Positions 732-50,899 of a DNA stretch of 60,405 nt are shown here, piece by piece. The stretch comes from Arenicellales bacterium (GTDB taxonomy: Bacteria > Pseudomonadota > Gammaproteobacteria > Arenicellales > JAANXG01): assembly GCA_030066885.1 (NCBI GenBank), contig JASJAT010000052.1, positions 1 through 60,405 of the forward strand, written 5' to 3'. The notes below the pieces were generated by a model. The model saw only the letters and a program-made list of their open reading frames with translations, did not search any database and was not told where the DNA came from. Numbering within the stretch: position 1 is the first letter of the stretch; every line of letters begins with the position of its first letter. The position numbers and the translations under genes were made by a program.

Positions 732-865
732 CATCGGGATCATAAATACATCCCTGTTGGCAGACGACGCCTAGGATGGCGATTGAGCGCCGCAACCGAA
801 TGGTGGTCCACGTCTGTCAAAGGGGGTATGACGGGCAAGAGAGAAGCTGAAGACCAACACGAATC

Positions 866-2656
866 ATGACAAATACCCGCGATACAGATTCTCAATCTCC
901 CGACTATAGCGACCTAGTCGGAGAGTTGGCTGCCAATTTTACAGCTTGTCAGAAAGTTATGGCAGATTTCACCGAGGCTTACAAAAACATGGAAGTAGAT
1001 CCGCTCAATCTACGTGGCGCCTACGCCCACTGGTTGGTTGAAACTGCTAAAAACCCACTCCATCTGCTCGGTGCCGGGTTGAACTACTGGCAGGACGCCA
1101 TGAAGCTCTATGGGCAATCGATGTCGAGGTTGGGGAACGTCAAAACCGATCCGGTAATAGAACCGGCGAAAGACGACAGGCGATTCAACGATGAGGCCTG
1201 GCTAGAGAACCCGCTCTATGATTTCGTCAAGCAATCCTATTTGCTGAGCGCTAAGTGGATGCGCGAAGTCGCAAACCACAATAATCCTGCGGATGAAAAA
1301 ATTGCAAAGAAAGTGGCATTCTTTACTGAACGCTACGTAGAAGCGCTGTCACCTACCAACTTCGTGCTGAGCAATCCCGCGGTGCTGGAAAAAACTCTGG
1401 AGACCAAGGGTGCAAATCTGGTCATGGGTCTTAAAAACATGCTGCAGGACCTGGAGCGCGGGAACGGTCAACTCCGCATCCGTATGACTGACGAGGATGC
1501 TTTCGAACTGGGGGTAAACGTGGCTACAACACCCGGTAAAGTGGTGTTTCAGAACCGGATGATGCAGCTCATCCAATATTTACCCTCGACGGAAAAAGTA
1601 TTCAAGCGCCCGCTGTTGGTGGTACCTCCATGGATCAACAAGTTTTACATCATGGACCTACAGCCGAAGAACTCACTAATAAAGTGGCTAATCGATCAGG
1701 GTCACACGGTGTTTGTCATCTCTTGGGTCAATCCCGATGAGAGTTATCGAGATACGCCATTCGATGCTTATCTTTTAGAGGGCACTATTGCCGCCCTGGA
1801 GGCAATCGAGTCGGCGACCGGAGAAAGCACCGTCAATGCCATCGGCTACTGTATCGGCGGCACATTGCTGGCGATGACGCTGGGTTATGAAACTGCCCAC
1901 CGTCGCCCCCGCATCAAGAGCGCCACCTTTTTGACCACTATGCTAGATTTTTCCGATCCCGGTGACCTTGGTGTATTCGTCGACGAAGGTCAGGTGTCGG
2001 CGCTCAACGAAAAGATGGTGGAAAAAGGTTATCTTGACGGCAGTTCAATGGCCACTACCTTCAATCTGCTGCGAGCCAACGATTTAATCTGGTCTTTCTT
2101 CGTCAATAACTATCTGCTAGGCAACGATCCAAAACCCTTCGACTTGTTGTACTGGAATTCGGACTCCACTCGCATGCCAGCCAATATGCACAACTGGTAC
2201 CTGACCAATTTGTACATCAAGAATCTATTGAAGGAACCAGGGGGGGTTGCATTGGATGATACCGCGATCGATCTGACCGAGGTCCAAACACCGGTATGTT
2301 TTGTTTCGACCGTGGATGATCATATTGCACCGTGGCTTTCCACCTATGCAGGTGCTCAGTTGTTTGCGGGGCCGGTCAAGTTTATTTTGGGCGGTTCCGG
2401 GCACATCGCCGGGATAATCAACCCACCGGCAAACAATAAGTACGGTTACCGCTCTACCGACGAACCTCCCACCGACCCTGTCGCTTGGGCAGAAAAGGCG
2501 GACAAACACGAAGGGTCTTGGTGGCCCGAATGGGCACACTGGGCAAAACACCGAGGCGGAGACCAAATACCTGCGCGTATGCCGGGTGACGGCGAACTCG
2601 AGGTTCTGGAAGACGCGCCCGGATCTTACGTCAAGGTCAGATCTTTAGATGTCTGA
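866..2656 (+). CDS. phaC: class I poly(3-hydroxyalkanoate) synthase
   Basis: PPWINKFYIMDL, lipase box GYCIGG, DHIAPW, SGHIAG, GSWWPEW; 596 aa. Confidence 0.97.
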   Translation: MTNTRDTDSQSPDYSDLVGELAANFTACQKVMADFTEAYKNMEVDPLNLRGAYAHWLVETAKNPLHLLGAGLNYWQDAMKLYGQSMSRLGNVKTDPVIEPAKDDRRFNDEAWLENPLYDFVKQSYLLSAKWMREVANHNNPADEKIAKKVAFFTERYVEALSPTNFVLSNPAVLEKTLETKGANLVMGLKNMLQDLERGNGQLRIRMTDEDAFELGVNVATTPGKVVFQNRMMQLIQYLPSTEKVFKRPLLVVPPWINKFYIMDLQPKNSLIKWLIDQGHTVFVISWVNPDESYRDTPFDAYLLEGTIAALEAIESATGESTVNAIGYCIGGTLLAMTLGYETAHRRPRIKSATFLTTMLDFSDPGDLGVFVDEGQVSALNEKMVEKGYLDGSSMATTFNLLRANDLIWSFFVNNYLLGNDPKPFDLLYWNSDSTRMPANMHNWYLTNLYIKNLLKEPGGVALDDTAIDLTEVQTPVCFVSTVDDHIAPWLSTYAGAQLFAGPVKFILGGSGHIAGIINPPANNKYGYRSTDEPPTDPVAWAEKADKHEGSWWPEWAHWAKHRGGDQIPARMPGDGELEVLEDAPGSYVKVRSLDV

Positions 2657-2691
2657 CCCCCTAACAACACATTTTAAACGAGGAGCAAAAA

Positions 2692-3879
2692 ATGACAGGC
2701 GAACGTGAAGTAGTTGTATTGAGTGGCGTGCGTACTGCGATTGGTGATTACGGTGGGGCACTGAAAGACCAGAGCCCGATCCAGCTGGCTGCAGAGGTGA
2801 TCCGTGAAGCCGTATCCCGGGCCAAGGTAGATGCAGGCGACATTGGGGCGTGTGTGATGGGTAACGTGATTCATACCGAGCCCCGAGATATGTATCTCTC
2901 CCGCGTCGCGGCCCTCGAAGGGGGTTTGTCACAGGACAGCCAAGCATTCACTCTCAACCGACTTTGCGGTAGCGGGATGCAGGCAATTGTATCCGCGGCG
3001 CAGCAGATCCTGCTCGGAGACGTAGATGCAGCCGTCGCTGGCGGTGCGGAATCTATGAGCCGCGGTGGTTATATGATGCCGAGTGCCCGTTGGGGCCAGC
3101 GCATGGGCGACGGCAGCATGGTCGATATGATGGTGGGAGCGCTAACCGATCCTTTCGATACCGTCCATATGGGCATCACTGCCGAAAACATCGCGGAAAA
3201 GTGGGACATCAAGCGTGAAGATCAAGACGCTCTGGCGGTGGAGAGTCACAAGCGGGCCGCTAGCGCCGCTGAACAAGGATACTTCAAAGAGCAGATACTG
3301 CCTTACGAAATCAAGACGCGCAAAGGCACCAACGTTTTCGACGCTGATGAACACATACGTGCTGACGCGAGCGTTGAAGGCATGGCCAAACTGCGGGCGG
3401 TATTCAAGAAGGATGGCAGCGTCACTGCCGGCAACGCCTCCGGGATCAATGACGCTGCTGCAGCGATTGTGCTGATGGAACGCAGCGTAGCGGAACAAAA
3501 GGGTTTGCAGCCCGCGATGCGTTTAGTCGGCTATGCGCTGGCTGGAGTTGACCCCAAGTACATGGGCATTGGTCCAGTACCGGCGATCAACAATGTACTG
3601 AATCGTACCGGGTTGTCCGTTTCAGATATGGACGTGATCGAACTCAATGAAGCGTTTGCCGCGCAGGCGCTGGCGGTATGTAGAGACCTGGATCTGCCGT
3701 CGGATAGAACAAATCCCAACGGCAGCGGCATATCGCTCGGACATCCTATCGGAGCCACCGGCACGATTTTGACCGTGAAAACCCTGTATGAACTACAGCG
3801 AACCGGCGGCAGATACGGCTTGGTCAGCATGTGCATTGGTGGCGGTCAGGGGATCGCCGCGGTTTTTGAACGCATCTAG
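2692..3879 (+). CDS. bktB: beta-ketothiolase (acetyl-CoA C-acyltransferase, BktB type)
   Basis: NRLCGSG, NEAFA, GHPIGATG, CIGGGQG; BktB-like N-terminus REVVVLSGVRTAIGDYGG. Confidence 0.9.
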   Translation: MTGEREVVVLSGVRTAIGDYGGALKDQSPIQLAAEVIREAVSRAKVDAGDIGACVMGNVIHTEPRDMYLSRVAALEGGLSQDSQAFTLNRLCGSGMQAIVSAAQQILLGDVDAAVAGGAESMSRGGYMMPSARWGQRMGDGSMVDMMVGALTDPFDTVHMGITAENIAEKWDIKREDQDALAVESHKRAASAAEQGYFKEQILPYEIKTRKGTNVFDADEHIRADASVEGMAKLRAVFKKDGSVTAGNASGINDAAAAIVLMERSVAEQKGLQPAMRLVGYALAGVDPKYMGIGPVPAINNVLNRTGLSVSDMDVIELNEAFAAQALAVCRDLDLPSDRTNPNGSGISLGHPIGATGTILTVKTLYELQRTGGRYGLVSMCIGGGQGIAAVFERI

Positions 3880-12934: not shown

Positions 12935-14107
12935 ATGACCGATTGGCACTATCGGGCTTTTTCAAAGGTTGAGCACAACGAGCGTATAACCCGCGCTAGA
13001 ACGCTCATGGCCAGTAAAGGGCTGGCCGGTTGTATATGCACATCTCCAGAGCTGCTTTACTATTTCACCGGTTACGAGGCGCATACGCATCATGCGATCG
13101 GTTCTCAGGCTATGGTAATGGCCGCGGAGCGGGACGAGCCTATTTTGATTTTGCGCGATGGTGATTTGCCACAGGCAGACGAGACCGTAGTAGTCGGCAG
13201 AATACACCCTTTCCGTCTGGGAGCTGTCGAACTGGGAATGTTGATCAAAGCGGCGGTATCCGAGCTGGGGCTGACCGGGAAACCTCTCGGGCTCGACGGA
13301 TCCGGCCCGACTATGAACGGTGAGTTAGCGCAATCATTGGAACAGGCATTGAGCGACAGTGAGTTGCACGACTGCTGGCGCCTGTTGGGGCGACTCCGAA
13401 CAGTACTCTCGGCTCAAGAAATTGTTTATTTGAAAGAAGCAACTGTCTACGCCAACGCGGGGATCGACGCATTTTACGAGACGGCACGCACTGGTATGTC
13501 GGAAATCGAACTGGCTGCGGAGATCGAGTATGCAATGCGCGCAGCTGGCAGTGACTATCCGGCTGTTCCGACCTGGATGGCCTCGGGCCCGCGGGCCTAT
13601 TGCCAACATGCCATGGCGACGCCCCGCAAACTAGAAAAAGGGGATTTGGTACACGCGGAATTTGCCGGCGTTGCCCGTCGTTATCACAGTGTGACAATGG
13701 GTTCTTTGGTAATGGGGGAACCCAACAAAAGAATGGTAGAAATGGCGGATGGCGCCAAGGCAGCCTTTGAAGCAGGTCTGGCTGCAGTATCTATAGGCCG
13801 ACGTATAGGAGATGCCGAGGCGGCATATCGGGAGTGTCTGAATGAAAGGGGTCTAGGTGATTGCTGTCCCATGCGCTTCGGTGTCGGAATCTCCGCCGCC
13901 TATCCTCCAGTATGGGAAAACCAGGTCACGATACAGTACGAAACGGAGGATCGGTTTGAGCTGGGCATGGCGTTTTATATACACGCGTCGATGCAGTCCA
14001 TGAGAGATCGTGAGGGGATGCTACTTGGAGGCTCTTTCCTTATGACCGAGGCAGGCCCAGAACGTTTAGATAAGGCCCGAATGGAACTCGTTACTACTCC
14101 AGTTTGA
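12935..14107 (+). CDS. M24 (pita-bread) family hydrolase, creatinase/ectoine-hydrolase-like
   Basis: Creatinase-N-type start (YYFTGY), SEIELAAEI, MASGPR..QH, GVGISAAYPPVWE; canonical dimetal ligands absent. Confidence 0.8.
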   Translation: MTDWHYRAFSKVEHNERITRARTLMASKGLAGCICTSPELLYYFTGYEAHTHHAIGSQAMVMAAERDEPILILRDGDLPQADETVVVGRIHPFRLGAVELGMLIKAAVSELGLTGKPLGLDGSGPTMNGELAQSLEQALSDSELHDCWRLLGRLRTVLSAQEIVYLKEATVYANAGIDAFYETARTGMSEIELAAEIEYAMRAAGSDYPAVPTWMASGPRAYCQHAMATPRKLEKGDLVHAEFAGVARRYHSVTMGSLVMGEPNKRMVEMADGAKAAFEAGLAAVSIGRRIGDAEAAYRECLNERGLGDCCPMRFGVGISAAYPPVWENQVTIQYETEDRFELGMAFYIHASMQSMRDREGMLLGGSFLMTEAGPERLDKARMELVTTPV

Positions 14108-14529: not shown

Positions 14530-15450
14530 ATGAAATTTGCAGACCACGGTTTGATAGCCAGCCAAACGGACCCGGCTATCAACGTCTTGATAGCGCCACT
14601 CCGCGAGGTCGTGCGAAAACTCTTCGTTAAGCTGGCTTCACCGATGGCGAGTGTGTACCGATGGTATGCCGTGTTTGCGAGACTCTGCACCATTCCTAAA
14701 GAAGATTCACTGTTTACTCGATTCAATCACGACGCGAATACCCATTCGATCTTGAGGGCAATCCAAGTATCACCTGCGGTGGTTTACCAAAATGGAAATC
14801 AATGGGTTGATTCTATAGACGGATCAAAATATCTACTGGATTGTGTTCCTTGTGCGGAATCGAATGAATTACCACCAGGTGATGATTTTTCTTGCCCGGG
14901 CAATCAGCAACGTTTTGCTGCTCAGACGGGAAAACTCTTTGCGAAAACTCGATCGGTGGCTCCATCTGATCGTGTTCTCCTCACGCTACTGATGACGGAT
15001 ATTGTCGGGTCGACCGACAAAGTCACAGAATTGGGAGATGAGAAATGGGGAGAGTTATTGCAACAACATAATCGAATGGTGCGCCGTAACATCGTTGCTT
15101 TCGAAGGGACCGAAGTAAAAACAACTGGGGATGGATTTCAAATCTCCTTTGATCTACCCACCCTAGCGATTCGTTGCGCAGAATCTATCCATCGAGATTT
15201 AGAGCCACTTGGAATGAGTATTCGTGCAGGTGTCCATACAGGTGAATATGTAAGGTGCGGCGATGAACTGAATGGTGTGGCAGTTCATTTGGCGGCCCGC
15301 ATCATGGACATTGGGAAATCAGGCGAAACCATTGTTTCAAGCACAGTGAAAGACCTTGTGGTTGGATCGGGAATCACTTTCTCAACCTTGGGCAACCACA
15401 TACTGAAGGGAATTCAGAATAAGTGGCTGTTATTTAGAGTGGAAGATTAG
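14530..15450 (+). CDS. class III adenylate/guanylate cyclase (LipJ-like) with eroded alpha/beta-hydrolase remnant
   Basis: LMTDIVGST, VKTTGDG, IRAGVHTGE, GVAVHLAARI, LKGI; start codon uncertain. Confidence 0.8.
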   Translation: MKFADHGLIASQTDPAINVLIAPLREVVRKLFVKLASPMASVYRWYAVFARLCTIPKEDSLFTRFNHDANTHSILRAIQVSPAVVYQNGNQWVDSIDGSKYLLDCVPCAESNELPPGDDFSCPGNQQRFAAQTGKLFAKTRSVAPSDRVLLTLLMTDIVGSTDKVTELGDEKWGELLQQHNRMVRRNIVAFEGTEVKTTGDGFQISFDLPTLAIRCAESIHRDLEPLGMSIRAGVHTGEYVRCGDELNGVAVHLAARIMDIGKSGETIVSSTVKDLVVGSGITFSTLGNHILKGIQNKWLLFRVED

Positions 15451-29505: not shown

Positions 29506-29777
29506 TAGATCTTGCTCCTGTTTTTGAGAAATATGACAAGTTTACACGCCTTGATCGCGGTTTCTTGGCGCGGATTTCCTGTGGGCTCTCGAGTTTATGT
29601 CACTCCAGGACCGAAGTTTTTTACTTCTCTTCTTTAGTCAGAATTAAACTTCGCTCCGACCTCAATGGCTGATGGGTGGAGGTTAATTGTTGCCACCAAG
29701 TGTGGCGAACACCACATATTTATCAGCATCGGTTTGCGAAAATATCAAACATCATGAGAGACAGTTAGGTGACCGCC

Positions 29778-29897
29778 ATGCAAACCGCTCACGATACATA
29801 CGATCTAACAGAACACAGAGCCACTGGTAAAGACGTTAAAAGTGGTTGGATATTAGTTGCCTTAATAAATCTTGGCCTAGTGGTCCTAACGCTTTAA
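29778..29897 (+). CDS. unannotated 39-aa single-pass membrane micro-protein (paralog of 46345..46446)
   Basis: AGGTGA RBS; MQTAHDTYDLTEHRATGKDVKSGWILVALINLGLVVLTL*; 15 of the last 21 residues are identical to the second copy. Confidence 0.75.
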   Translation: MQTAHDTYDLTEHRATGKDVKSGWILVALINLGLVVLTL

Positions 29898-34744: not shown

Positions 34745-35713
34745 ATGATTCTGCCGCTCCTCTCTTTCCTCTTTGGAATCATCGTCCTTGTCTGGAGCGC
34801 AGATCGCTTCGTGGCGGGATCCGCCTCTACGGCAAGCCACTTCGGTATGCCGCGGCTGTTGGTCGGCATGTTGGTGATCGGTTTCGGGACGTCGGCACCG
34901 GAGATGGTCGTATCCGCCCTCGCCGCGTCCTCGGGCAATACCGAGATCGGTTTGGGCAATGCTTATGGATCCAACATTGCCAATATCGCGCTCATTCTCG
35001 GTTTGACTGCCCTGATTCATCCGATCGCCGTGCACTCCGGAGTGCTGCGCAAGGAGCTGCCCATTTTAGCTGTTGTGACGGCGCTCGCTGCATACCAGGT
35101 GTGGGACGGCCGACTTACCCGTCTCGAGGCGATCTTACTACTCGTGGCATTTGCGGGCCTTCTGGCGTGGTCCATACACAAGGGCCTGCGGCATCGCGCC
35201 GATGCCCCACCAGGCCACACGGAACGGGAGCTTGGCGCGGGGGGAATGCCCATCGCGCGTGCGTTGTTCTGGCTTGCCTTAGGTCTGATACTGCTCGTTG
35301 CCAGTTCTCGCGTACTGGTTTGGAGCGCTGTGGAGATTGCAAAGTTACTCGAGGTAAGCGACCTGGTCATCGGTTTGACGATCGTGGCCCTCGGGACATC
35401 GCTGCCGGAGCTGGCGTCTACAGTTGTCGCGGTTCGCAGAGGCGAGCATGATATTGCCGTAGGTAATGTCCTCGGCTCAAACCTGTTCAACACATTGCTC
35501 GTCGTTGGAATCGCAGTGGCAATTGAGCCGACCGTAGTCCCACCGGAGATCTTCTCCCGCGATATGGTTGTGATGGGTGCTCTTACCCTGGCGCTGTTTG
35601 TCGTGTGTTTCGGATTTCAAGGTCCGGGCCGGGTGCAGCGGTTCGAGGGTGCGGCTCTGCTGTCGGTTTTCTTAGTTTATAACACCTACTTGGTGAGTGG
35701 CGCTGTCAGTTGA
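34745..35713 (+). CDS. Ca2+/Na+ antiporter (CaCA, YrbG-like)
   Basis: Alpha repeats GTSAPE...GSNIANI and GTSLPE...GSNLFN. Confidence 0.93.
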   Translation: MILPLLSFLFGIIVLVWSADRFVAGSASTASHFGMPRLLVGMLVIGFGTSAPEMVVSALAASSGNTEIGLGNAYGSNIANIALILGLTALIHPIAVHSGVLRKELPILAVVTALAAYQVWDGRLTRLEAILLLVAFAGLLAWSIHKGLRHRADAPPGHTERELGAGGMPIARALFWLALGLILLVASSRVLVWSAVEIAKLLEVSDLVIGLTIVALGTSLPELASTVVAVRRGEHDIAVGNVLGSNLFNTLLVVGIAVAIEPTVVPPEIFSRDMVVMGALTLALFVVCFGFQGPGRVQRFEGAALLSVFLVYNTYLVSGAVS

Positions 35714-37188
35714 AGCCCTGCGCCTCGGATGTAGCGCAGGATCCATTCGAAGATGTCGCCTGGAGGTACTCGGCCGACCCAGGTGACACCCCGCGTCGGT
35801 GAATAAAACCAAATCACCGCTGCAATGGCGATGCCCGCAATGACAATGGCGGTGTTCATTGCTGACGGCGGACCACCGTTGACGACAAGCGGGAAAGCCA
35901 ACACCAATACCAGCAATCCCAACCAGGGCAGTGCCAAGCCAGCTCCGTGACTCGACGGGTCAGTGGTATAAGGCCGAACTAGATTCAGGAAGCGGGCCAT
36001 CAACAAGGTGGCACCGAACGTTGAAACAAACAACAACCCGACAAACATTTGAATCCAACCGCTGTATCCCGTGTCGAGGGCGATTTTCAATATGTCCTTG
36101 GCGGCAGCACCCGATGTCAGTGGCGCACCTGCCAGGGCGAGGGCCGGAATGAACAACAAGTAAAACACCCATGACGCACCGGTGTCTTTGGCAATACCCA
36201 CGCCAAGAAACAATGCACCTTTAGCCAGACCATGATGCGCGGCGTAGATGGCCAGCGCTGAAATTACCGCCGGCGCTAGACGTGGATCCATCGCTATCAG
36301 GCCTATGGCAGCGCTCATGATGCCCATCTTGCCGATGCTCGAGTAGGCCAGAACAGCCTTGGGTTCCTTCTGCATCAGTCCAACCGGAATCGCGCTCAGG
36401 GTCGTCATCGCTCCAACCGCCAAAAGCAAACCCCCAAACTCGGGCAACGCCGATTCACCGAGTGGGAGATAACGCATCCATCCAATCAGCGCTGCCTTGA
36501 TCATAGTCCCGCTTAAAACGGCGCTGGCTGGCACCGGGGCTGCGGGGTGGGCGAGCGGCAACCAGAAATGAACACCGATCAGCCCTGCCTTGATGGCAAA
36601 GGCCAATCCCAGAAATGTGAGCTCTATGTTGCCCGCCCCGATAATCGCGCCCACATCGGGTGTCAGGTCGCCGGTGCGCTGATACAGCAACAGTAGCCCT
36701 ATCAGCAATGCGAATTCAGCAGCCAGCGTCATCACAAGGTAAACCCGGCCTGCATGGCGAACCGATTCGGTCCCGTCGTGCACAACCAATCCATAGGCGG
36801 CGAGCCCCATTAGCGCGAATCCCAGATAGAAACTCGACAGGTCCTGACCGATGATCAAACCGAAATTTCCACCCATGGCCAGCATAAAAACGACTCGAAA
36901 ACGGCCGGCACGCGAATCGTCGGACATTTGCAGCGTGGCTTGGGCCCCTGCGACAAGCCACAGAACGGCAGTGAACAAAAGAAAAATGCGGGACGTGTCA
37001 TCCAGCCCCAGCTGAACACCGAGCAACAACCAGGGGATCTCGACCGATTCATTTGATGGGACCAGGGCAGCGGCTGCCAGCGCCGGCAGGGTGGCCAGTG
37101 CCGGCAGCAAACGACCCTTTCGACTGTATGCGAGTAGTGCCAGCACCAGAGGCGACAGCCAGGTGAACACGAGTAGGGCAGCATTCAT
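35686..37188 (-). CDS. mrpD: Mrp antiporter MrpD/MrpA-like subunit 3
   Basis: HFWLPLAHPAAPVPASAVLSG, LAYSS, HHGLAKGALFL. Confidence 0.85.
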   Translation of the reverse strand: MNAALLVFTWLSPLVLALLAYSRKGRLLPALATLPALAAAALVPSNESVEIPWLLLGVQLGLDDTSRIFLLFTAVLWLVAGAQATLQMSDDSRAGRFRVVFMLAMGGNFGLIIGQDLSSFYLGFALMGLAAYGLVVHDGTESVRHAGRVYLVMTLAAEFALLIGLLLLYQRTGDLTPDVGAIIGAGNIELTFLGLAFAIKAGLIGVHFWLPLAHPAAPVPASAVLSGTMIKAALIGWMRYLPLGESALPEFGGLLLAVGAMTTLSAIPVGLMQKEPKAVLAYSSIGKMGIMSAAIGLIAMDPRLAPAVISALAIYAAHHGLAKGALFLGVGIAKDTGASWVFYLLFIPALALAGAPLTSGAAAKDILKIALDTGYSGWIQMFVGLLFVSTFGATLLMARFLNLVRPYTTDPSSHGAGLALPWLGLLVLVLAFPLVVNGGPPSAMNTAIVIAGIAIAAVIWFYSPTRGVTWVGRVPPGDIFEWILRYIRGAGLQLTAPLTK

Positions 37189-38687
37189 CGCAGGTACTCC
37201 CGCTCCGCGATCAGCTCAGCCCACTCAAGAGGACTGTACGGGGCAGCCGCGAACAGCCCTGCCGCGAGTGCCAGCACCGCCGTGGCTACAGGGGGCCAGA
37301 ACAGGGCACCGGTCGTCTCAAACCAGCCCGTCCTTGGGTGCTCGTTTGGCCAGTCAACCGGCGCCTCAAGGAACCAAGCACGGTATAAAACCGGGAGGAA
37401 GTAAGCCGCGTTGAGTAAACTGCTGATGATCAGAACCGGTAGCACCCAGGCAGCCGCGCCGGCCTCCAAGGCACCCAAACCAAGATACCACTTGGTGACG
37501 TAGCCGGCTACCGGGGGTATGCCGATCATCCCCAACGCTCCCACGGTAAACGCAAGTGTTGTGCCCGGCATACGACGGCCGATTCCATTCATTTCACTGA
37601 CTTTATGCACACCCAACGTCTCGGCGTAGTTGCCGGCGGCGAAAAACAATGTGATCTTCATCACCCCCTGGTGCACAAGGTGTACTACACCACCGATGGT
37701 CGCTATCGGCCCGAGTGTCGCCGTACCGAGGGCGATGTAGGAGACCTGACTGACAGTGGAATAAGCCAAGCGTTTTTTAAGGTTGTCCTGAGACAGAGCC
37801 TTTATGGAACCGTAAATGATTGTGACAGCCGCCATGACACCGAGGGGGAGCAACAAATTAAGGTCCGCCGCGAATTCAACACCATACACGTCGTACACCA
37901 CTCGAACGATACCGAATGCGCCGGCTTTGACTACGGCGACCGCATGAAGCAGGGCGCTGACCGGTGCCGGAGCTACCATCGCCTGCGGTAACCAGCCGTG
38001 TAGCGGAACAAGTGCAGCTTTGACACCCAGTCCAAGCACCAGCAGCACAAAGATCCATTTGAGCTGGCTGTATGTCTGCTCGGGTAGACGCGACAACACA
38101 CCTCCCTCCACAAAAGTGACCGGACCGGCGACGGCGTGCAACCACACAGCGCCCAATAGCAATGCGAGACCACCGCCCAGGGTATAAACCAGATAGATTC
38201 GCGCCCCGCGAATCGCCTCGGTGTTACCCCTATGCGCCACCAGCGGATAGGTGGCCAGCGTCAGCAGCTCGTAAAAGATCACGAATGTGAACAGATTAGC
38301 AGCCAATGCAAGTCCAACAGTCGCCGATACGCATAGGCTAAAAAATCCGAAGAAGCGACTCCGTTTTGGCGAGTGCTCCAGATAACCGATCGCGTAGAGA
38401 GTGGTGACGAACCACAGTATCGTGGACAGGGTAACGAACAGAACCGACAGTGCGTCGGCGTGCAGTGCCAGTTCAAGTCCAGGCGCCAGGGTCCAGCGGG
38501 TGGCATAGACCTTTTCGTGGAACACACCCCAGATCATGATACCGACGAGCACCAGCTTGGCGAAGGCACCACCAAGGTTCAGCAGTGTGCGGGTAAATTG
38601 GCTACCCTCGCGTAGAAAAAAAATGACCAGGCCCGGAAGCAGCGAGGAGGCGACGATCAGGCCGGGCAGCGTAGACGATAGGTTCAT
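37185..38687 (-). CDS. mrpD: Mrp antiporter MrpD-like subunit 2
   Basis: FYELLTL, HGWLPQAMVAPAPVSALLHAVAVVKAG, KKRLAYSTVSQ. Confidence 0.88.
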   Translation of the reverse strand: MNLSSTLPGLIVASSLLPGLVIFFLREGSQFTRTLLNLGGAFAKLVLVGIMIWGVFHEKVYATRWTLAPGLELALHADALSVLFVTLSTILWFVTTLYAIGYLEHSPKRSRFFGFFSLCVSATVGLALAANLFTFVIFYELLTLATYPLVAHRGNTEAIRGARIYLVYTLGGGLALLLGAVWLHAVAGPVTFVEGGVLSRLPEQTYSQLKWIFVLLVLGLGVKAALVPLHGWLPQAMVAPAPVSALLHAVAVVKAGAFGIVRVVYDVYGVEFAADLNLLLPLGVMAAVTIIYGSIKALSQDNLKKRLAYSTVSQVSYIALGTATLGPIATIGGVVHLVHQGVMKITLFFAAGNYAETLGVHKVSEMNGIGRRMPGTTLAFTVGALGMIGIPPVAGYVTKWYLGLGALEAGAAAWVLPVLIISSLLNAAYFLPVLYRAWFLEAPVDWPNEHPRTGWFETTGALFWPPVATAVLALAAGLFAAAPYSPLEWAELIAEREYLR

Positions 38688-40123
38688 ATGTCATTCCCGA
38701 GCAGCGGCCACAGCCAACCACTGCCGACGCCGAGAAGCACCGCTGCGATGGCACTCAGCAGTAGCGCGGGCCACTCCTCTCTCGCGATGGCGACCGGGGC
38801 ATCGGGCTGGGAACTTCCAGCGAAAGCCCGCTCCAGTACTCGAAAAACGTAGGCGGCGGCTAACATCGACCCCGTGGCCACGACAATCACCCACAGCCAC
38901 TGACCAAGCCCGAGGGCGCTGGACAGGAGCTGCCACTTGCCCAAAAAGGCGCCGCTGGGGGGCAGGCCGATCAGCGCGACCCCGGCCAGTGCAATCGTGA
39001 AAGTGGTTACAGGCATTCGCTGTGCCATTCCGCCCAGGTTAGAAATCTGGTCATTCCCCGAGCGCTTTTGCACCATCCCGGCAGCAAGAAACAAACCGGC
39101 CTTGGCAAACCCATGGGTCAGGGCCATCAGCACGATGCCCCCGAACAGAACGTCACGCGTCGGCCCCGGTGCAAGCTGGAACAGTAACGCCAGACCGAGA
39201 AAAAGATAGCCCAATTGGGCGACGGTGGAGTAAGCGGCCAACAGCTTAAGCCGTTCCGCCTTGAAGGCCTGCCACGAACCCCAAAGCACCGCAGCCGCGC
39301 CAGGGATCCCGAGCAGCAGACCAGTAGAAGGTGTCAGCAGAGCCGGGAACAGGTCTATCCACAGCCGCATAACCAGGTAGAAACCGGCCTTCACCACCAA
39401 TGCAGACAACACAGCACTGACCGGAGCCGGTGCATTGGCATGCGCCGGCGGCAACCAGAAGTGCAACGGAAACAAGGCTGTCTTCAACAAGAGGCCACCG
39501 GTCATCAGGCACAGCGCCAGCCACGCAATCGGTTCCGATTCGATCTGGGTCGCGATGGCCGGGAGGTCAAGGGTGCCATAGCCGAGGTAGAGGAGCGCCA
39601 CCCCGGCGAGGTAGACCATGGACCCCAGCAACCCAACCAACAGGTAGCGCAGCGCCGCGTCGATCGCGGCACGTTGGCCGCTCAGTGCAGCGAGAGAAAC
39701 CGCGGTCAGTCCAAGGAGCTCTAGGGTCACATATACATTGAACAAGTCGCTGGAGAGCACCAGGGCATTCAGAGCAGCCAGCAGCAACAGCCACATCGGC
39801 CAGAAATGTGCCTTCTCCCGGGGTTGTCCGAAATACCCGGTTGCGTAGACGCTGCTGGCCAAAACCACCAACCCGACGAGCACTAAAAAGACAGCGGAAA
39901 GGATATCGACGCGGAGGGCAATACCCAGCCCTGGCGTCCAGCCACCCATCTCGTGTTGGAGCGCACCGACGACGAGAACTTGGACCAGCGTCAAAACCGC
40001 CGCGACGCTGACAGCGAAGGCTGTCAACATGCCAACGACCTCGCAACGTCGAGGCCACGCGACAGCGATCAGCGCCCCGCAGAGCGGCAGGGCCACAGAA
40101 AGGACCAGCACGTCAACTTCCAT
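38684..40123 (-). CDS. mrpD: Mrp antiporter MrpD-like subunit 1
   Basis: DLFNVYVTLE, KTALFPLHFWLPPAH, AYSTVAQLGY; start moved to ATG 40123. Confidence 0.88.
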   Translation of the reverse strand: MEVDVLVLSVALPLCGALIAVAWPRRCEVVGMLTAFAVSVAAVLTLVQVLVVGALQHEMGGWTPGLGIALRVDILSAVFLVLVGLVVLASSVYATGYFGQPREKAHFWPMWLLLLAALNALVLSSDLFNVYVTLELLGLTAVSLAALSGQRAAIDAALRYLLVGLLGSMVYLAGVALLYLGYGTLDLPAIATQIESEPIAWLALCLMTGGLLLKTALFPLHFWLPPAHANAPAPVSAVLSALVVKAGFYLVMRLWIDLFPALLTPSTGLLLGIPGAAAVLWGSWQAFKAERLKLLAAYSTVAQLGYLFLGLALLFQLAPGPTRDVLFGGIVLMALTHGFAKAGLFLAAGMVQKRSGNDQISNLGGMAQRMPVTTFTIALAGVALIGLPPSGAFLGKWQLLSSALGLGQWLWVIVVATGSMLAAAYVFRVLERAFAGSSQPDAPVAIAREEWPALLLSAIAAVLLGVGSGWLWPLLGNDI

Positions 40124-40397
40124 CTTTGTCCCTGCGGCGGCGTTCAAGGGCAAGTCCGAGCGCAGTAGCACTTACCGCCACGACAATCCCGGTCAGAACC
40201 AATGCATGCAGTACAGGGTCGGCGGCGGTGTCCGGACCGGTATACGCGGTCGCTATCATCAGCAGGAAGATACCGACCCCCATGATGTTAATGGCAAGAA
40301 GTTTGCGTATGACCTCGGGCTCCAGCAGCGTTGCGCGAAATCCCATTGCCGCCAGAGCGACCCCCGTTAATCCATACAGTACGCCGGTGTCGATCAT
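40113..40397 (-). CDS. mrpC: Mrp antiporter subunit C
   Basis: RKLLAINIM, DPVLHALVLTGIVV. Confidence 0.9.
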   Translation of the reverse strand: MIDTGVLYGLTGVALAAMGFRATLLEPEVIRKLLAINIMGVGIFLLMIATAYTGPDTAADPVLHALVLTGIVVAVSATALGLALERRRRDKDGS

Positions 40398-42416: not shown

Positions 42417-44642
<2,226 letters not shown>

Positions 44643-45060: not shown

Positions 45061-45960
45061 ATGAATAACCTGAATCTCAAGCACCTCCGCTATTTCTGGG
45101 TTGTGGCCAGTCGGGGATCGATCACCAGCGCCAGCGAAGTCCTGCATCTGACGCCACAAACGATCAGCGGCCAGCTACGCGTGCTCGAGGAGAGTATAGG
45201 TGCCAAGGTGTTCGAGAAATCGGGGCGTAACCTTGTACTCACCGATACCGGACGCACGGTGTTTTCCTATGCAGACGAAATATTCCGGCTGACCGGTGAA
45301 CTCCAGGATCTCCTCGAGGGCCGCCCGGCCAACAGAGGACTGGTGCTTGATGTTGGAATATCCAATATTGTGCCGAAACTGCTGGCCTATCGTGTTCTCG
45401 AACCGGTGATGCACATGGAGGAGAAGGTCCGGCTGATTTGCCATGAGGCACCGCTCGTTGACTTACTGGCCGATCTCTCGGTGCACAAGCTTGATCTCGT
45501 ACTGGCCGACAGCCCGGTCAGCCCCGTATTCAACGTCAAAGCGTATAACCACGTGTTAGGTGAATCCGGTACCAGTTTTTTTGTAAGTGGCCGAAACGCG
45601 GCGCGTTACAGCAAAGGATTTCCGGGGTCTCTCGACGGCGCGCCTATGCTGATGCCGACCAGTGGCAGCAGCTTTCGGCGGACGCTGGACCAATGGCTCG
45701 AGCGTGAAGGCATTCAACCCCTGATCGTTGCTGAATTCGAAGACAGGGCTCTGATGAAGGCATTCGGTGAGGCCGGTGCGGGTGTGTTCACGTCACCCAC
45801 AGCCGTTGAAGAGGACGTCAAGGCTAAATATAGTGTACACGTGATCGCCCGGGTTGAAGATCTACACGAGAGGTTCTATGCCATCTCCACCGAGCGCCGT
45901 ATTAAACATCCAGCAGTAGCAACGATCACGACCGCCGCTAGGAAGGATTTGTTCAAATAG
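45061..45960 (+). CDS. nhaR: LysR-family transcriptional activator NhaR
   Basis: LNLKHLRYFWVVA, LHLTPQTISGQ, EFEDRALMKAFG, FYAISTERRIKHPAV. Confidence 0.9.
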   Translation: MNNLNLKHLRYFWVVASRGSITSASEVLHLTPQTISGQLRVLEESIGAKVFEKSGRNLVLTDTGRTVFSYADEIFRLTGELQDLLEGRPANRGLVLDVGISNIVPKLLAYRVLEPVMHMEEKVRLICHEAPLVDLLADLSVHKLDLVLADSPVSPVFNVKAYNHVLGESGTSFFVSGRNAARYSKGFPGSLDGAPMLMPTSGSSFRRTLDQWLEREGIQPLIVAEFEDRALMKAFGEAGAGVFTSPTAVEEDVKAKYSVHVIARVEDLHERFYAISTERRIKHPAVATITTAARKDLFK

Positions 45961-46312: not shown

Positions 46313-46344
46313 GGAGCCTATCTAAATCAAACTCGGAGTTAAAA

Positions 46345-46446
46345 ATGAACTACTTGGAAGATCGCAGAATTGACCGTAACGATGTTAAGAGTGGCTGGAT
46401 CTTATTAGCCATGGTAAAACTGGGTTTCGTGGCACTGACACTTTAA
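46345..46446 (+). CDS. unannotated 33-aa single-pass membrane micro-protein (paralog of 29778..29897)
   Basis: GGAG RBS; MNYLEDRRIDRNDVKSGWILLAMVKLGFVALTL*; lies directly downstream of promoter copy 2. Confidence 0.75.
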   Translation: MNYLEDRRIDRNDVKSGWILLAMVKLGFVALTL

Positions 46447-49642: not shown

Positions 49643-50899
49643 TTATCGAAGCAAATCCTCTTCAAAAGGAAACCGTGACAATAATTCCGTGCCATGTTCC
49701 GTGATGAGTACCTGTTCCTCCAATTTTACGCCTTCGTGACCACCTTCTTCACCGATGTAACTTTCCACACAAATAGTCATACCCGGGAGAATAACTCCAT
49801 CATAACCCGCATCTGCGAAGTCCGCGCGATGGTATAAATAAGGATACTCGCCGGTCATACCGACACCATGAGACGAGAGATAGTAGCGGTTAGCAAAGTA
49901 CTTCCCGGGGATATCCCACGCCTTGTCCGCGTATTCGCGAAAACTCAACCCCGGCCCCAAAATACCAATATTGTGGTGCACCTGCTCGTGGGCAACTTTA
50001 TACAGGGTCTTTTGCAACTCTGTTGGTTTCGCGGGACCCACGTGAAACGTGCGCGAGAAATCCGAATAATATCCATGGCAACCGACAACATCAGTGTCTA
50101 GTGCAATCAGTTCATTCTCACCGATGATTTTATTCGCCGACTCCTGAAACCAGGGGTTCGTACGTTCTCCAGAATTTAGCAATCGAGTTTCACAATAATC
50201 CCCATTAAGTGCAATAACCGACTGGTGCAATACAGACCACAATTCATTCTCAGTTATGCCCGGACGAATAGCCTGGCGTAATTTACTTACCCCAGCCTCT
50301 GTGGCTCGCAGTGAGGCAATTACGCATTTAATCTCTTCATCCGACTTGATGCAGCGTGCCATTTCTATCGGTTCTTGGGCGTCGACCAATTTCGAACCCA
50401 GCTCCGCCAAAGCCAATGCCGCACCCGCATTCATGCGTTCAATCCCAACGATTGTTTTTGCCCCAACCAACTCTGTAATAGTCGATAAGATTTCTTTAGC
50501 CCAATTGCGCTCTCGTGCAGAAATACCTGGGCCCGCGGCCACAAAGCTCGCCGTCTTTGCCGGCCGCACCTCGTCTACAGTTTCGAAACCCTCCGCCAAA
50601 TGAAGACAGCCTGTGAATTCGTACAGGATTGTCCGAGCATCAGTGACTAATAAGTAGCGAGACGGCGTATTACGCGAAGAAAATATTTGCATATTACGCG
50701 TGCCAGTGGTGTATCGAATATTCACCGGGTCCGAAACGATAAGCGCGCCGATGTCTCGCTTCTTCATCTCCTCCCGGACACGGCTCAGACGGTAAAGCCT
50801 TACCGCTCGCATATCGATGCCTTTGCTTTCCGGTGCACTATCAAGCAATGCTATCCCGGATAGGTTGGATCGGCCCGAATGCCAGTCAAGTTCTGTCAT
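49643..50899 (-). CDS. M24 metallo-enzyme, DddP (DMSP lyase)-like
   Basis: DPVNIRYTTG.RNMQ, ETRLLNSG.RTNPWFQE, DTD....GYYSDFSRT, HGVG, VESYIG...GVKLEEQV. Confidence 0.8.
   Translation of the reverse strand: MTELDWHSGRSNLSGIALLDSAPESKGIDMRAVRLYRLSRVREEMKKRDIGALIVSDPVNIRYTTGTRNMQIFSSRNTPSRYLLVTDARTILYEFTGCLHLAEGFETVDEVRPAKTASFVAAGPGISARERNWAKEILSTITELVGAKTIVGIERMNAGAALALAELGSKLVDAQEPIEMARCIKSDEEIKCVIASLRATEAGVSKLRQAIRPGITENELWSVLHQSVIALNGDYCETRLLNSGERTNPWFQESANKIIGENELIALDTDVVGCHGYYSDFSRTFHVGPAKPTELQKTLYKVAHEQVHHNIGILGPGLSFREYADKAWDIPGKYFANRYYLSSHGVGMTGEYPYLYHRADFADAGYDGVILPGMTICVESYIGEEGGHEGVKLEEQVLITEHGTELLSRFPFEEDLLR

Follow-up and report, generated by a model that had tools for sequence, protein, structure and literature searches.

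The window analysed here, that is, the whole stretch of 60,405 nucleotides (nt) of contig JASJAT010000052.1 from the Arenicellales bacterium assembly GCA_030066885.1, contains two very short open reading frames (ORFs) on the forward strand, at 29778-29897 and 46345-46446, and the question that this locus raises is whether they are genuine micro-protein genes and, if they are, how such genes are controlled and what their products may do. The explanation that we consider rather probable is that the two peptides belong to a lineage-specific group of tail-anchored micro-proteins, the majority of which make up the core of a small regulon of the Crp type, probably driven by a cyclic nucleotide. Judged by their sequences, the two peptides are true members of a family under selection. 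The elements of the window on which the argument relies are listed below (aa, amino acids; TM, transmembrane).

29701..29716, forward strand: Crp-type palindrome of copy 1, a TGTGG-N6-CCACA form of TGTGA-N6-TCACA, centred at about -41.5
29735..29743, forward strand: TG-extended -10 element of copy 1 (TG, one base, then the hexamer GAAAAT at 29738-29743)
29767..29772, forward strand: Shine-Dalgarno stretch of copy 1, AGGTGA, 5 nt before the ATG
29778..29897, forward strand: micro-protein gene copy 1, 39 aa; core member of the subtype with Asn in the TM segment; profile E value 4.3e-24
46335..46338, forward strand: Shine-Dalgarno stretch of copy 2, GGAG, 6 nt before the ATG
46345..46446, forward strand: micro-protein gene copy 2, 33 aa; divergent subtype with Lys in the TM segment; profile E value 7e-15

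Two short ORFs and a family of nine copies

The translations of both ORFs agree with those given in a preliminary description of the window, and in each case the ATG stands behind a Shine-Dalgarno-like stretch, as had been noted there. The reported similarity was also recovered: 15 of the last 21 residues are identical between the two peptides (pairwise BLASTP E = 2e-11), 8 of these 15 identities are encoded by different codons, and BLASTN of the 200-nt flanks returned only chance words of 7 to 12 nt, so that the flanks are indeed unrelated. The count of two paralogs was too low. When the family profile was searched against all 124,042 six-frame fragments of at least 20 aa from the window's own assembly (G000; 4.12 Mb in 250 contigs, 50% G+C, 89% complete), nine members were found with E values of 1.3e-25 to 7e-15, and the next fragment had an E value of 0.33. 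Besides the two copies of the window, the members are the following.

C98:2426-2542, reverse strand: core copy
C107:3791-3919, forward strand: copy of a divergent subtype
C107:4301-4417, forward strand: core copy (C107b)
C112:3447-3566, reverse strand: core copy
C113:6074-6190, reverse strand: core copy
C192:5138-5254, forward strand: core copy
C198:7680-7799, reverse strand: core copy

Seven of the copies, window copy 1 included, are mutually close core copies that fall into two TM subtypes, and window copy 2 and C107:3791-3919 represent divergent subtypes. We regard the nine copies as separate loci and not as assembly duplicates because their flanks all differ; two of them stand at contig ends, which fits a repeated family that breaks the assembly. 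The statement that the peptides are unannotated held in part: copy 1, read from its ATG, is absent from the records, and the copy 2 peptide is already recorded as a predicted protein (NCBI-sourced contig), with a member of the same 90% cluster (P0007) present in other public data.

The family was found by profile search in 13 of the 20 genomes of the window's GTDB family, and its presence by genus, with G000 left aside, was 4/4 in g1, 7/7 in g5, 1/1 in g4, 0/1 in g2, 0/1 in g3 and 0/5 in g6. G000 has the most copies, with nine, and the other carriers have one to five. In other families of the same order, none of the 21 genomes was matched by the first profile (A1), and in a class-wide sample the broadest profile matched 2 of 400 scored genomes, namely G000 and the distant genome G343, whose family gene is the only one found outside the GTDB family. 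The search of public libraries, covering 1.84 billion cluster representatives, gave 39 proteins at E <= 1e-3, of which 37 are 31-98 aa long as called and share the same architecture; the two long matches (934 and 222 aa) align only through short internal repeats. Where a library name exists at all, it is 'hypothetical protein'. That the family is an unrecognised one, as the preliminary description supposed, agrees with the searches of curated libraries: Pfam, PADLOC, PHROGs and Rfam gave no match, the best NCBIfam E value was 0.083 (13 bits against a cut-off of 60), and the best profile match in the PDB sequence set had an E value of 0.54. The ESM Atlas gave a best score of 0.87, to unnamed clusters only, and a search of metagenome contigs with the family alignment matched 27 pattern stretches, none of which was confirmed. 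With regard to the placement of G000, a thiolase query matched only mixed MAGs of Gamma- and Betaproteobacteria, at 61-76%, and an HD-GYP query matched nothing, which leaves the organism gammaproteobacterium-like. The restriction to one GTDB family of Gammaproteobacteria-like genomes means that the finding has a limited reach.

Selection on the protein sequence

The preliminary description attributed the similarity of the two peptides to selection on the protein sequence, and the ratios of non-synonymous to synonymous substitution rates (dN/dS, or omega; paralogs by Nei-Gojobori counts) bear this out, with values mostly between 0.02 and 0.4. Among the G000 paralogs, synonymous change dominates within TM subtypes; for example, C107b and C113 differ by 13 synonymous and 2 non-synonymous changes (omega 0.02). 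Window copy 1 against copy 2 gave an omega of 0.22 with saturated dS, and copy 1 against other G000 copies gave 0.19-0.97. Similar results were obtained outside G000, where the ortholog pairs of G002 and G004 have omega values of 0.12-0.13 and five syntenic orthologs in g5 have values of 0.04-0.36 in 9 of 10 pairs, the tenth being saturated. Because the synonymous divergence among copies reaches 0.3-1.7, the duplications are not all recent.

Two observations that the preliminary description had named as damaging to its reading were not encountered. None of the 29 family matches has an internal stop, and the lengths of the library matches given above, together with the repeat-only alignment of the long ones, led us to reject the reading of the peptides as relics of a longer gene.

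A class II promoter layout upstream of the core genes

In the nucleotide alignment of the G000 copies, about 110 bases upstream of the seven core genes are conserved, and most of this conservation is explained by three features, namely a palindrome, a -10 element and the Shine-Dalgarno stretch, of which the last (AGGTGA) is kept in all seven core copies. The palindrome (hereafter the box), which the preliminary description does not mention, is of 16 bp and of the type TGTGA-N6-TCACA and starts 74-77 nt before the ATG in 7 of the 9 copies; it is perfect in four core copies and takes the symmetric form TGTGG/CCACA at window copy 1. A TG-extended -10 element (TGn followed by GA[A/C]AAT; GAACAT in C112) lies at a fixed distance of 21-22 nt past the box in all seven boxed copies. 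Assuming a transcription start 7 nt after the -10 element, the centre of the palindrome lies at -41.5, in place of the -35 element, and transcription of copy 1 would start near 29750.

In PMC10187061, class II sites are placed in the -35 region, and a distance of 22 bp to the second -10 position is given as peculiar to class II; the spacing found here equals these 22 bp if it is counted from the 16-bp core. By sequence, the palindrome is of the Crp/Fnr type and overlaps the -35 region, as in class II. To judge from these elements, the seven boxed genes are stand-alone units with the layout of a class II, activator-dependent promoter. A generic scan found no consensus sigma-70 promoter on the forward strand at the two window loci, a blank which is expected for a class II type of promoter and which alone proves nothing; no intrinsic terminator was found on the forward strand at the two loci either. 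As a separate observation, six of the seven core copies (e.g., C98, C107b, C192 and C198) share an inverted repeat, CCTGA and TCAGG separated by 9 nt and with TAT after them, at about 77-110 nt before the ATG and immediately upstream of the box; none was seen in relatives.

The box is used almost exclusively by the family. The perfect form TGTGA-N6-TCACA occurs 4 times in G000 in comparison to about 6.9 expected under a third-order Markov model, and all four perfect palindromes stand upstream of family genes. To avoid circularity, a matrix was built from 10 sites of other genomes only and both strands of G000 were scanned; its first seven ranks, at 21.4 to 30.4 bits, are the seven core genes, with the box of copy 1 (24.5 bits) the sixth best site genome-wide. 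Rank 8, at 21.3 bits, is a box on contig C56 (595-616, reverse strand), about 80 nt upstream of an unrelated ORF of 39 aa that the family profile did not detect and that has its own Shine-Dalgarno stretch, a polar head, a C-terminal hydrophobic helix and, after the stop, a GC-rich hairpin which we read as a terminator. This ORF is likely an additional member of the same regulon.

The same arrangement is found in relatives. In g1 and g4, the 12 further family genes that were examined (from G001-G004 and G007) are all preceded by a box, which starts 74-87 nt from the ATG. With the seven G000 genes included, all 19 have a site with at most two mismatches from TGTGA-N6-TCACA, and in 15 of the 19 this site is followed, at an unchanged distance, by a hexamer of the -10 kind with A at position 2 and T at position 6. 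The box is kept in these relatives while the surrounding sequence diverges, and palindromes of the same type also stand upstream of the family gene of G343. By contrast, the Fnr-type sequence TTGAT-N4-ATCAA occurs 39 times in G000 in comparison to about 13.7 expected and, given also two proteins that pass the FNR cut-off, there seems to be a conventional Fnr regulon beside the narrow Crp-type one.

Candidate regulator and a possible cyclic-nucleotide signal

Six proteins of G000 score above the HTH_Crp_2 cut-off. Two of them pass the FNR subfamily cut-off and carry an E-x-x-S-R helix, and none of the six reaches the cut-off of the CRP equivalog NF008732 (266 bits), the best score being 69.3 bits. 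The best candidate for the regulator is the 224-aa protein encoded at C46:5037-5711, which has the Pfam domains cNMP_binding and HTH_Crp_2 and is the only one of the six with an H-R-E-A-V-T-R helix plus an FGE...PRSA phosphate-binding cassette. Its recognition helix, R-E-x-x-x-R, agrees with the site type TGTGA; in CRP, according to PMC10187061, this sequence is read by three residues of the RETVGR helix, R180, E181 and R185. Orthologs of the C46 protein were found in G003 (70% identity), G002 and G004 (53%), G007 (47%) and G006 (46%).

Genes of the same kind also stand next to family genes. In G002 and G004 the C46 ortholog lies tail-to-tail with a family gene, with gaps of about 80 and about 160 nt, and in five of the seven g5 genomes (G008, G010, G012, G014 and G016) another Crp-like gene, whose product has an S-R-E-M-V-S-R helix, is followed after about 130 nt by a family gene, and in G008 by two of them in tandem. 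Crp-like genes thus adjoin family genes in seven relatives. Adjacency and site type point to control by the Crp family, within which we infer the protein that acts in G000 and its ligand. Another Crp-like gene, on C198 and 2.5 kb from a family copy, was considered as regulator and rejected, having no ortholog above 29% in relatives and an atypical helix.

Two further stretches around regulator orthologs are recorded as side observations. In the complete genome G006 (C1:1619702-1623346) boxes stand on both sides of the regulator gene, at 1200, 1269 and 2552 of that stretch; one of them, followed by a -10-like hexamer at the usual distance, lies before an ORF of 47 aa (2654-2797) whose N-terminus resembles a signal peptide. 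In G003 (C30:11849-14865) a sixth box, at 1501-1517 on the reverse strand, stands before an OsmC-like ORF (845-1408, reverse strand), with the -10 spacing shifted by 1 nt and at about 1.4 kb from the regulator ortholog; a tblastn search for the OsmC-like target gave no match in G000.

With regard to the signal, G000 has 45 matches to class III adenylate/guanylate cyclases (PF00211), many of them in frames of about 1,100-1,130 aa, and one lies in the window (14980-15420, within the ORF 14530-15450 on the forward strand). This complement is unusually large, and a cyclic nucleotide signal is plausible because of it. No class I cyclase was found in G000. Linkage between cyclase and family genes was considered and set aside, since two cyclases within 4 kb is about what chance gives at 45 per 4.1 Mb by our own estimate.

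Architecture and probable topology of the micro-proteins

The architecture was examined in an alignment of 45 members, 22 from genomes and 23 from the library. The preliminary description's picture of a polar head followed by one C-terminal TM helix applies to all 45: the polar head is 15-29 aa long (median 19), one Trp is invariant, and the Trp together with the hydrophobic residues that follow it up to the end of the protein makes 14-23 residues (median 16). This pattern is maintained at 23-79% identity, and the length of members, counted from the start nearest the conserved block, is 31-47 aa in general and 33-42 aa in G000. For copy 1, AlphaFold2 predicted a single helix at residues 17-38, with a mean predicted local distance difference test (pLDDT) per 10-residue block of 92-95 over residues 21-39; residues 1-20, in which no regular structure was predicted, scored 61-70. 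A prediction of a homo-tetramer of copy 1 gave a score of 0.10 against a mark of 0.42 in a run without controls, which weighs neither way.

Lys or Arg occurs in the last 12 residues before the Trp in 38 of the 45 members and after the Trp in only one, window copy 2. Under the positive-inside rule, these counts would place the head in the cytoplasm and the C-terminus outside. The members are thus probably tail-anchored inner-membrane proteins with the N-terminus inside, and a short peptide with such a terminal TM segment would presumably insert after its release from the ribosome. Many members have a polar Asn or Lys in the middle of the TM segment.

The head of the G000 members follows the motif Y-[DE]-x-x-[DE]-H ... 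D-V-K-S-G-W, of which the element Y-[DE]-x-x-[DE]-H recurs in heads and is doubled in some members, which suggests that it may be a short autonomous binding motif. In the library, the 222-aa match (P0032; profile E value 1e-4) is a signal-peptide protein with 4-5 tandem repeats resembling the head motif (Y-x-x-Y-E-H-S-x-D-G ... V ... G-G); this resemblance could be due to chance or could hint at the head motif as an independent module.

Proposed function and mechanism

The preliminary description proposed partnership with Mrp, CaCA and DoxX. The flanks of the window copies and of five further loci have no homology in common, and the neighbours, which include DoxX, glyoxalase, HD-GYP, a LysR/KatG pair, a GTPase, a Deg-like protease and a decarboxylase, are different at every locus, for which reason the proposal was dropped. 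A role as leader peptide of the downstream gene was likewise rejected, since the downstream genes differ and are often convergent. Our best guess is that the micro-proteins are membrane-anchored adaptors or modulators that would present the head to a cytoplasmic or membrane partner, because the head is the best conserved part and the TM segment falls into discrete subtypes.

The sequences themselves show that the family exists, is under selection and has the architecture described, and they show the box with its geometry and near-exclusive use and the adjacency of Crp-like genes; the mechanism that we propose adds to these a presumptive translation, topology, binding regulator, effector and micro-protein function. 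Some of the many class III cyclases would make a cyclic nucleotide that loads a Crp-family regulator, most plausibly the C46 protein, and the loaded regulator would bind the box and turn on the boxed micro-protein genes together. The hydrophobic C-terminus of each product would then cross the membrane as far as the outer face, with the head left in the cytoplasm, and the micro-proteins would act at the membrane, with the TM subtypes addressing different partners. Taken together, the micro-proteins look like the main output of a small undescribed signalling circuit.

Points against the proposed regulon and alternative explanations

Several results weigh against this explanation. With respect to the box, the search window (70-95 nt upstream, at most two mismatches) was set after the first sites were known, the left half-site is degenerate in C98 and C192, no box was found within 130 nt upstream of copy 2 (46345-46446), and none was found upstream of C107:3791-3919. 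The genus g5 departs from the pattern in that its palindrome has a spacer of 5 nt, stands at a distance of about 112 nt from the ATG and has another palindrome, unlike the first, after it; in two of its genomes (G018 and G019) the upstream sequences are different again and the neighbouring gene is DsbA-like. With respect to the regulator, the C46 protein scores only 62.3 bits in comparison to the 266 bits of the CRP equivalog, the g5 genomes contain only about 30% relatives of it, and G006 carries the 46% ortholog and no family gene that we could find. As for the peptides, omega nears 1 between TM subtypes (0.81-0.97), and the hydrophobic run after the Trp, of about 15 residues, is short for a bilayer.

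A bolder form of the same explanation, which we put forward only tentatively, is a second-messenger circuit whose output is nearly all micro-proteins, with a dedicated cNMP-sensing regulator and at least eight peptides (seven of the family plus the C56 peptide) that would rewire membrane processes. Within such a circuit one possibility, by analogy, is feedback on membrane-bound cyclases among the approximately 45, in the manner of MgrB on PhoQ, with the TM subtypes serving as address labels.

Alternatively, the micro-proteins could be real while the palindrome is bound by another regulator, is a repressor or operator site, or is a functionless part of a recent duplication cassette. The imperfect co-occurrence of the candidate regulator with the family speaks for this, as does the likeness of the seven G000 promoters over about 110 nt, which includes the unexplained upstream hairpin, as would be seen after recent duplication. 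However, the box is kept across species and genera where its surroundings are not, its spacing to the -10 element is fixed, the site type suits the R-E-x-x-x-R helix, Crp-like genes stand beside family genes in seven genomes, and the synonymous divergence among copies (0.3-1.7) is considerable for a recent cassette, and we judge this alternative rather unlikely.

We give an equally small chance to type I toxin-like or pore-forming stress peptides, which would oligomerise and depolarise the inner membrane and be silenced by antisense RNA or by activator dependence. This reading, one of those offered in the preliminary description, draws on the small size, the single TM segment and the scattered copies, in which the family resembles Ldr, Ibs and Hok, which occur in several scattered copies per genome; the Asn or Lys found in the middle of the TM segment in many members could moreover drive helix association. 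Most type I toxins are shorter than 60 aa and have one TM helix, as stated in PMC12648545. The toxin reading nevertheless fits poorly, in that the best-conserved part of the micro-proteins is a polar head of 15-29 aa (cf. PMC12648545), the mRNA of copy 1 is no more structured than its shuffles (z +0.61, for this one copy), no Rfam match was obtained, the conservation between copies ends at the stop and is explained upstream by the box, the -10 element and the Shine-Dalgarno stretch, no conserved antisense element or promoter was noticed, without a formal search for one, and the promoter looks activator-dependent.

Much less probable is that the peptides are precursors of exported or modified peptides, like bacteriocins or ribosomally synthesised and post-translationally modified peptides (RiPPs), with a conserved leader and a variable hydrophobic core. 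A conserved head, a variable tail and many copies are what such a family would show, prochlorosins being an example of a multi-copy precursor family, but no gene for a modifying enzyme, protease or exporter recurs beside the examined loci, and the tails are nearly all aliphatic or aromatic, lack a double-glycine site and have the length and composition of a TM helix. Finally, we consider it hardly credible that the ORFs are untranslated and that what is conserved is an RNA or a pure DNA feature, for which only their extreme shortness speaks, since all 29 matches keep an open frame, synonymous changes are in excess, the Shine-Dalgarno stretch and the ATG are conserved, the architecture is held at 23-79% identity, and as an RNA element the stretch has neither a match to an Rfam family nor an unusual predicted fold.

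Comparison with known systems

Small proteins with a single TM helix that are induced by a regulator are a known kind, and so are class II promoters of the Crp type. Similar to the class II promoters of CRP/CAP (Escherichia coli), Vfr, Clp, SYCRP1 and Clr, the family promoters have a palindrome that replaces the -35 element and a fixed spacing to the -10 element, and the candidate regulator shares with those systems a cNMP-binding domain, a phosphate-binding cassette and an R-E-x-x-x-R helix. Clr of Sinorhizobium meliloti is, in addition, a Crp-type regulator in a cyclase-rich genome, as we propose here. The key differences are that the present candidate is no CRP equivalog, that its regulon looks tiny and dedicated rather than global, and that its targets would be micro-protein genes instead of catabolic operons.

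With respect to the products, MgrB, MgtS and AcrZ are enterobacterial single-TM small proteins that are induced by specific regulators, and like the family they are shorter than 50 aa with one TM helix; theirs is induction by a specific transcription factor and action by binding larger membrane proteins. This class of regulator-induced small proteins is reviewed in PMC12648545. The family differs from them by its nine paralogs, a TM segment at the extreme C-terminus, a conserved and acidic head, and the lack of a conserved neighbour. Type I toxins (Hok, Ldr, Ibs and TisB) are likewise short, hydrophobic and often present in several copies per chromosome, and are distinguished from the family by its long conserved head, its mRNA that is not highly structured and its activator-type promoter. 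Prli42 of Listeria, a small tail-anchored membrane protein, is reported to tether the stressosome; its N-terminus, in the cytoplasm, would keep a cytosolic complex attached to the membrane, which is the model proposed here for the micro-proteins. Its sequence is unrelated, it belongs to another phylum and is single-copy, and we know of no Crp-type control of it.

An abstract-level search of the literature found neither the protein family in print, nor the multi-copy tail-anchored form, nor the near-exclusive use of a Crp-type site by micro-protein genes, and no published regulator of the Crp type whose narrow regulon consists mainly of such genes. Bacterial micro-proteins have mostly been found singly and in model organisms, and what is described here is an apparently co-regulated family with a recognisable cis-element, which marks further members, such as the C56 peptide, and names a likely regulator and signal. 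If the proposed regulon is real, it would supply a case of this narrow, mainly micro-protein kind under Crp-type control, and it would provide a concrete output for cyclic-nucleotide signalling in a cyclase-rich genome.

Other genes of the window

Directly upstream of copy 2, a gene for a KatG-type catalase-peroxidase (42417-44642, reverse strand) is divergent from a LysR-family gene (45061-45960, forward strand), which we take to be an OxyR-like arrangement. Long ORFs lie at 35686-40171 on the reverse strand; Mrp is the label given in the preliminary description. The regions 866-3879 (forward strand), 12935-14107 and 49643-50899 contain PhaC and thiolase genes, which belong to polyhydroxyalkanoate synthesis, and two M24 peptidases of the creatinase/prolidase type.

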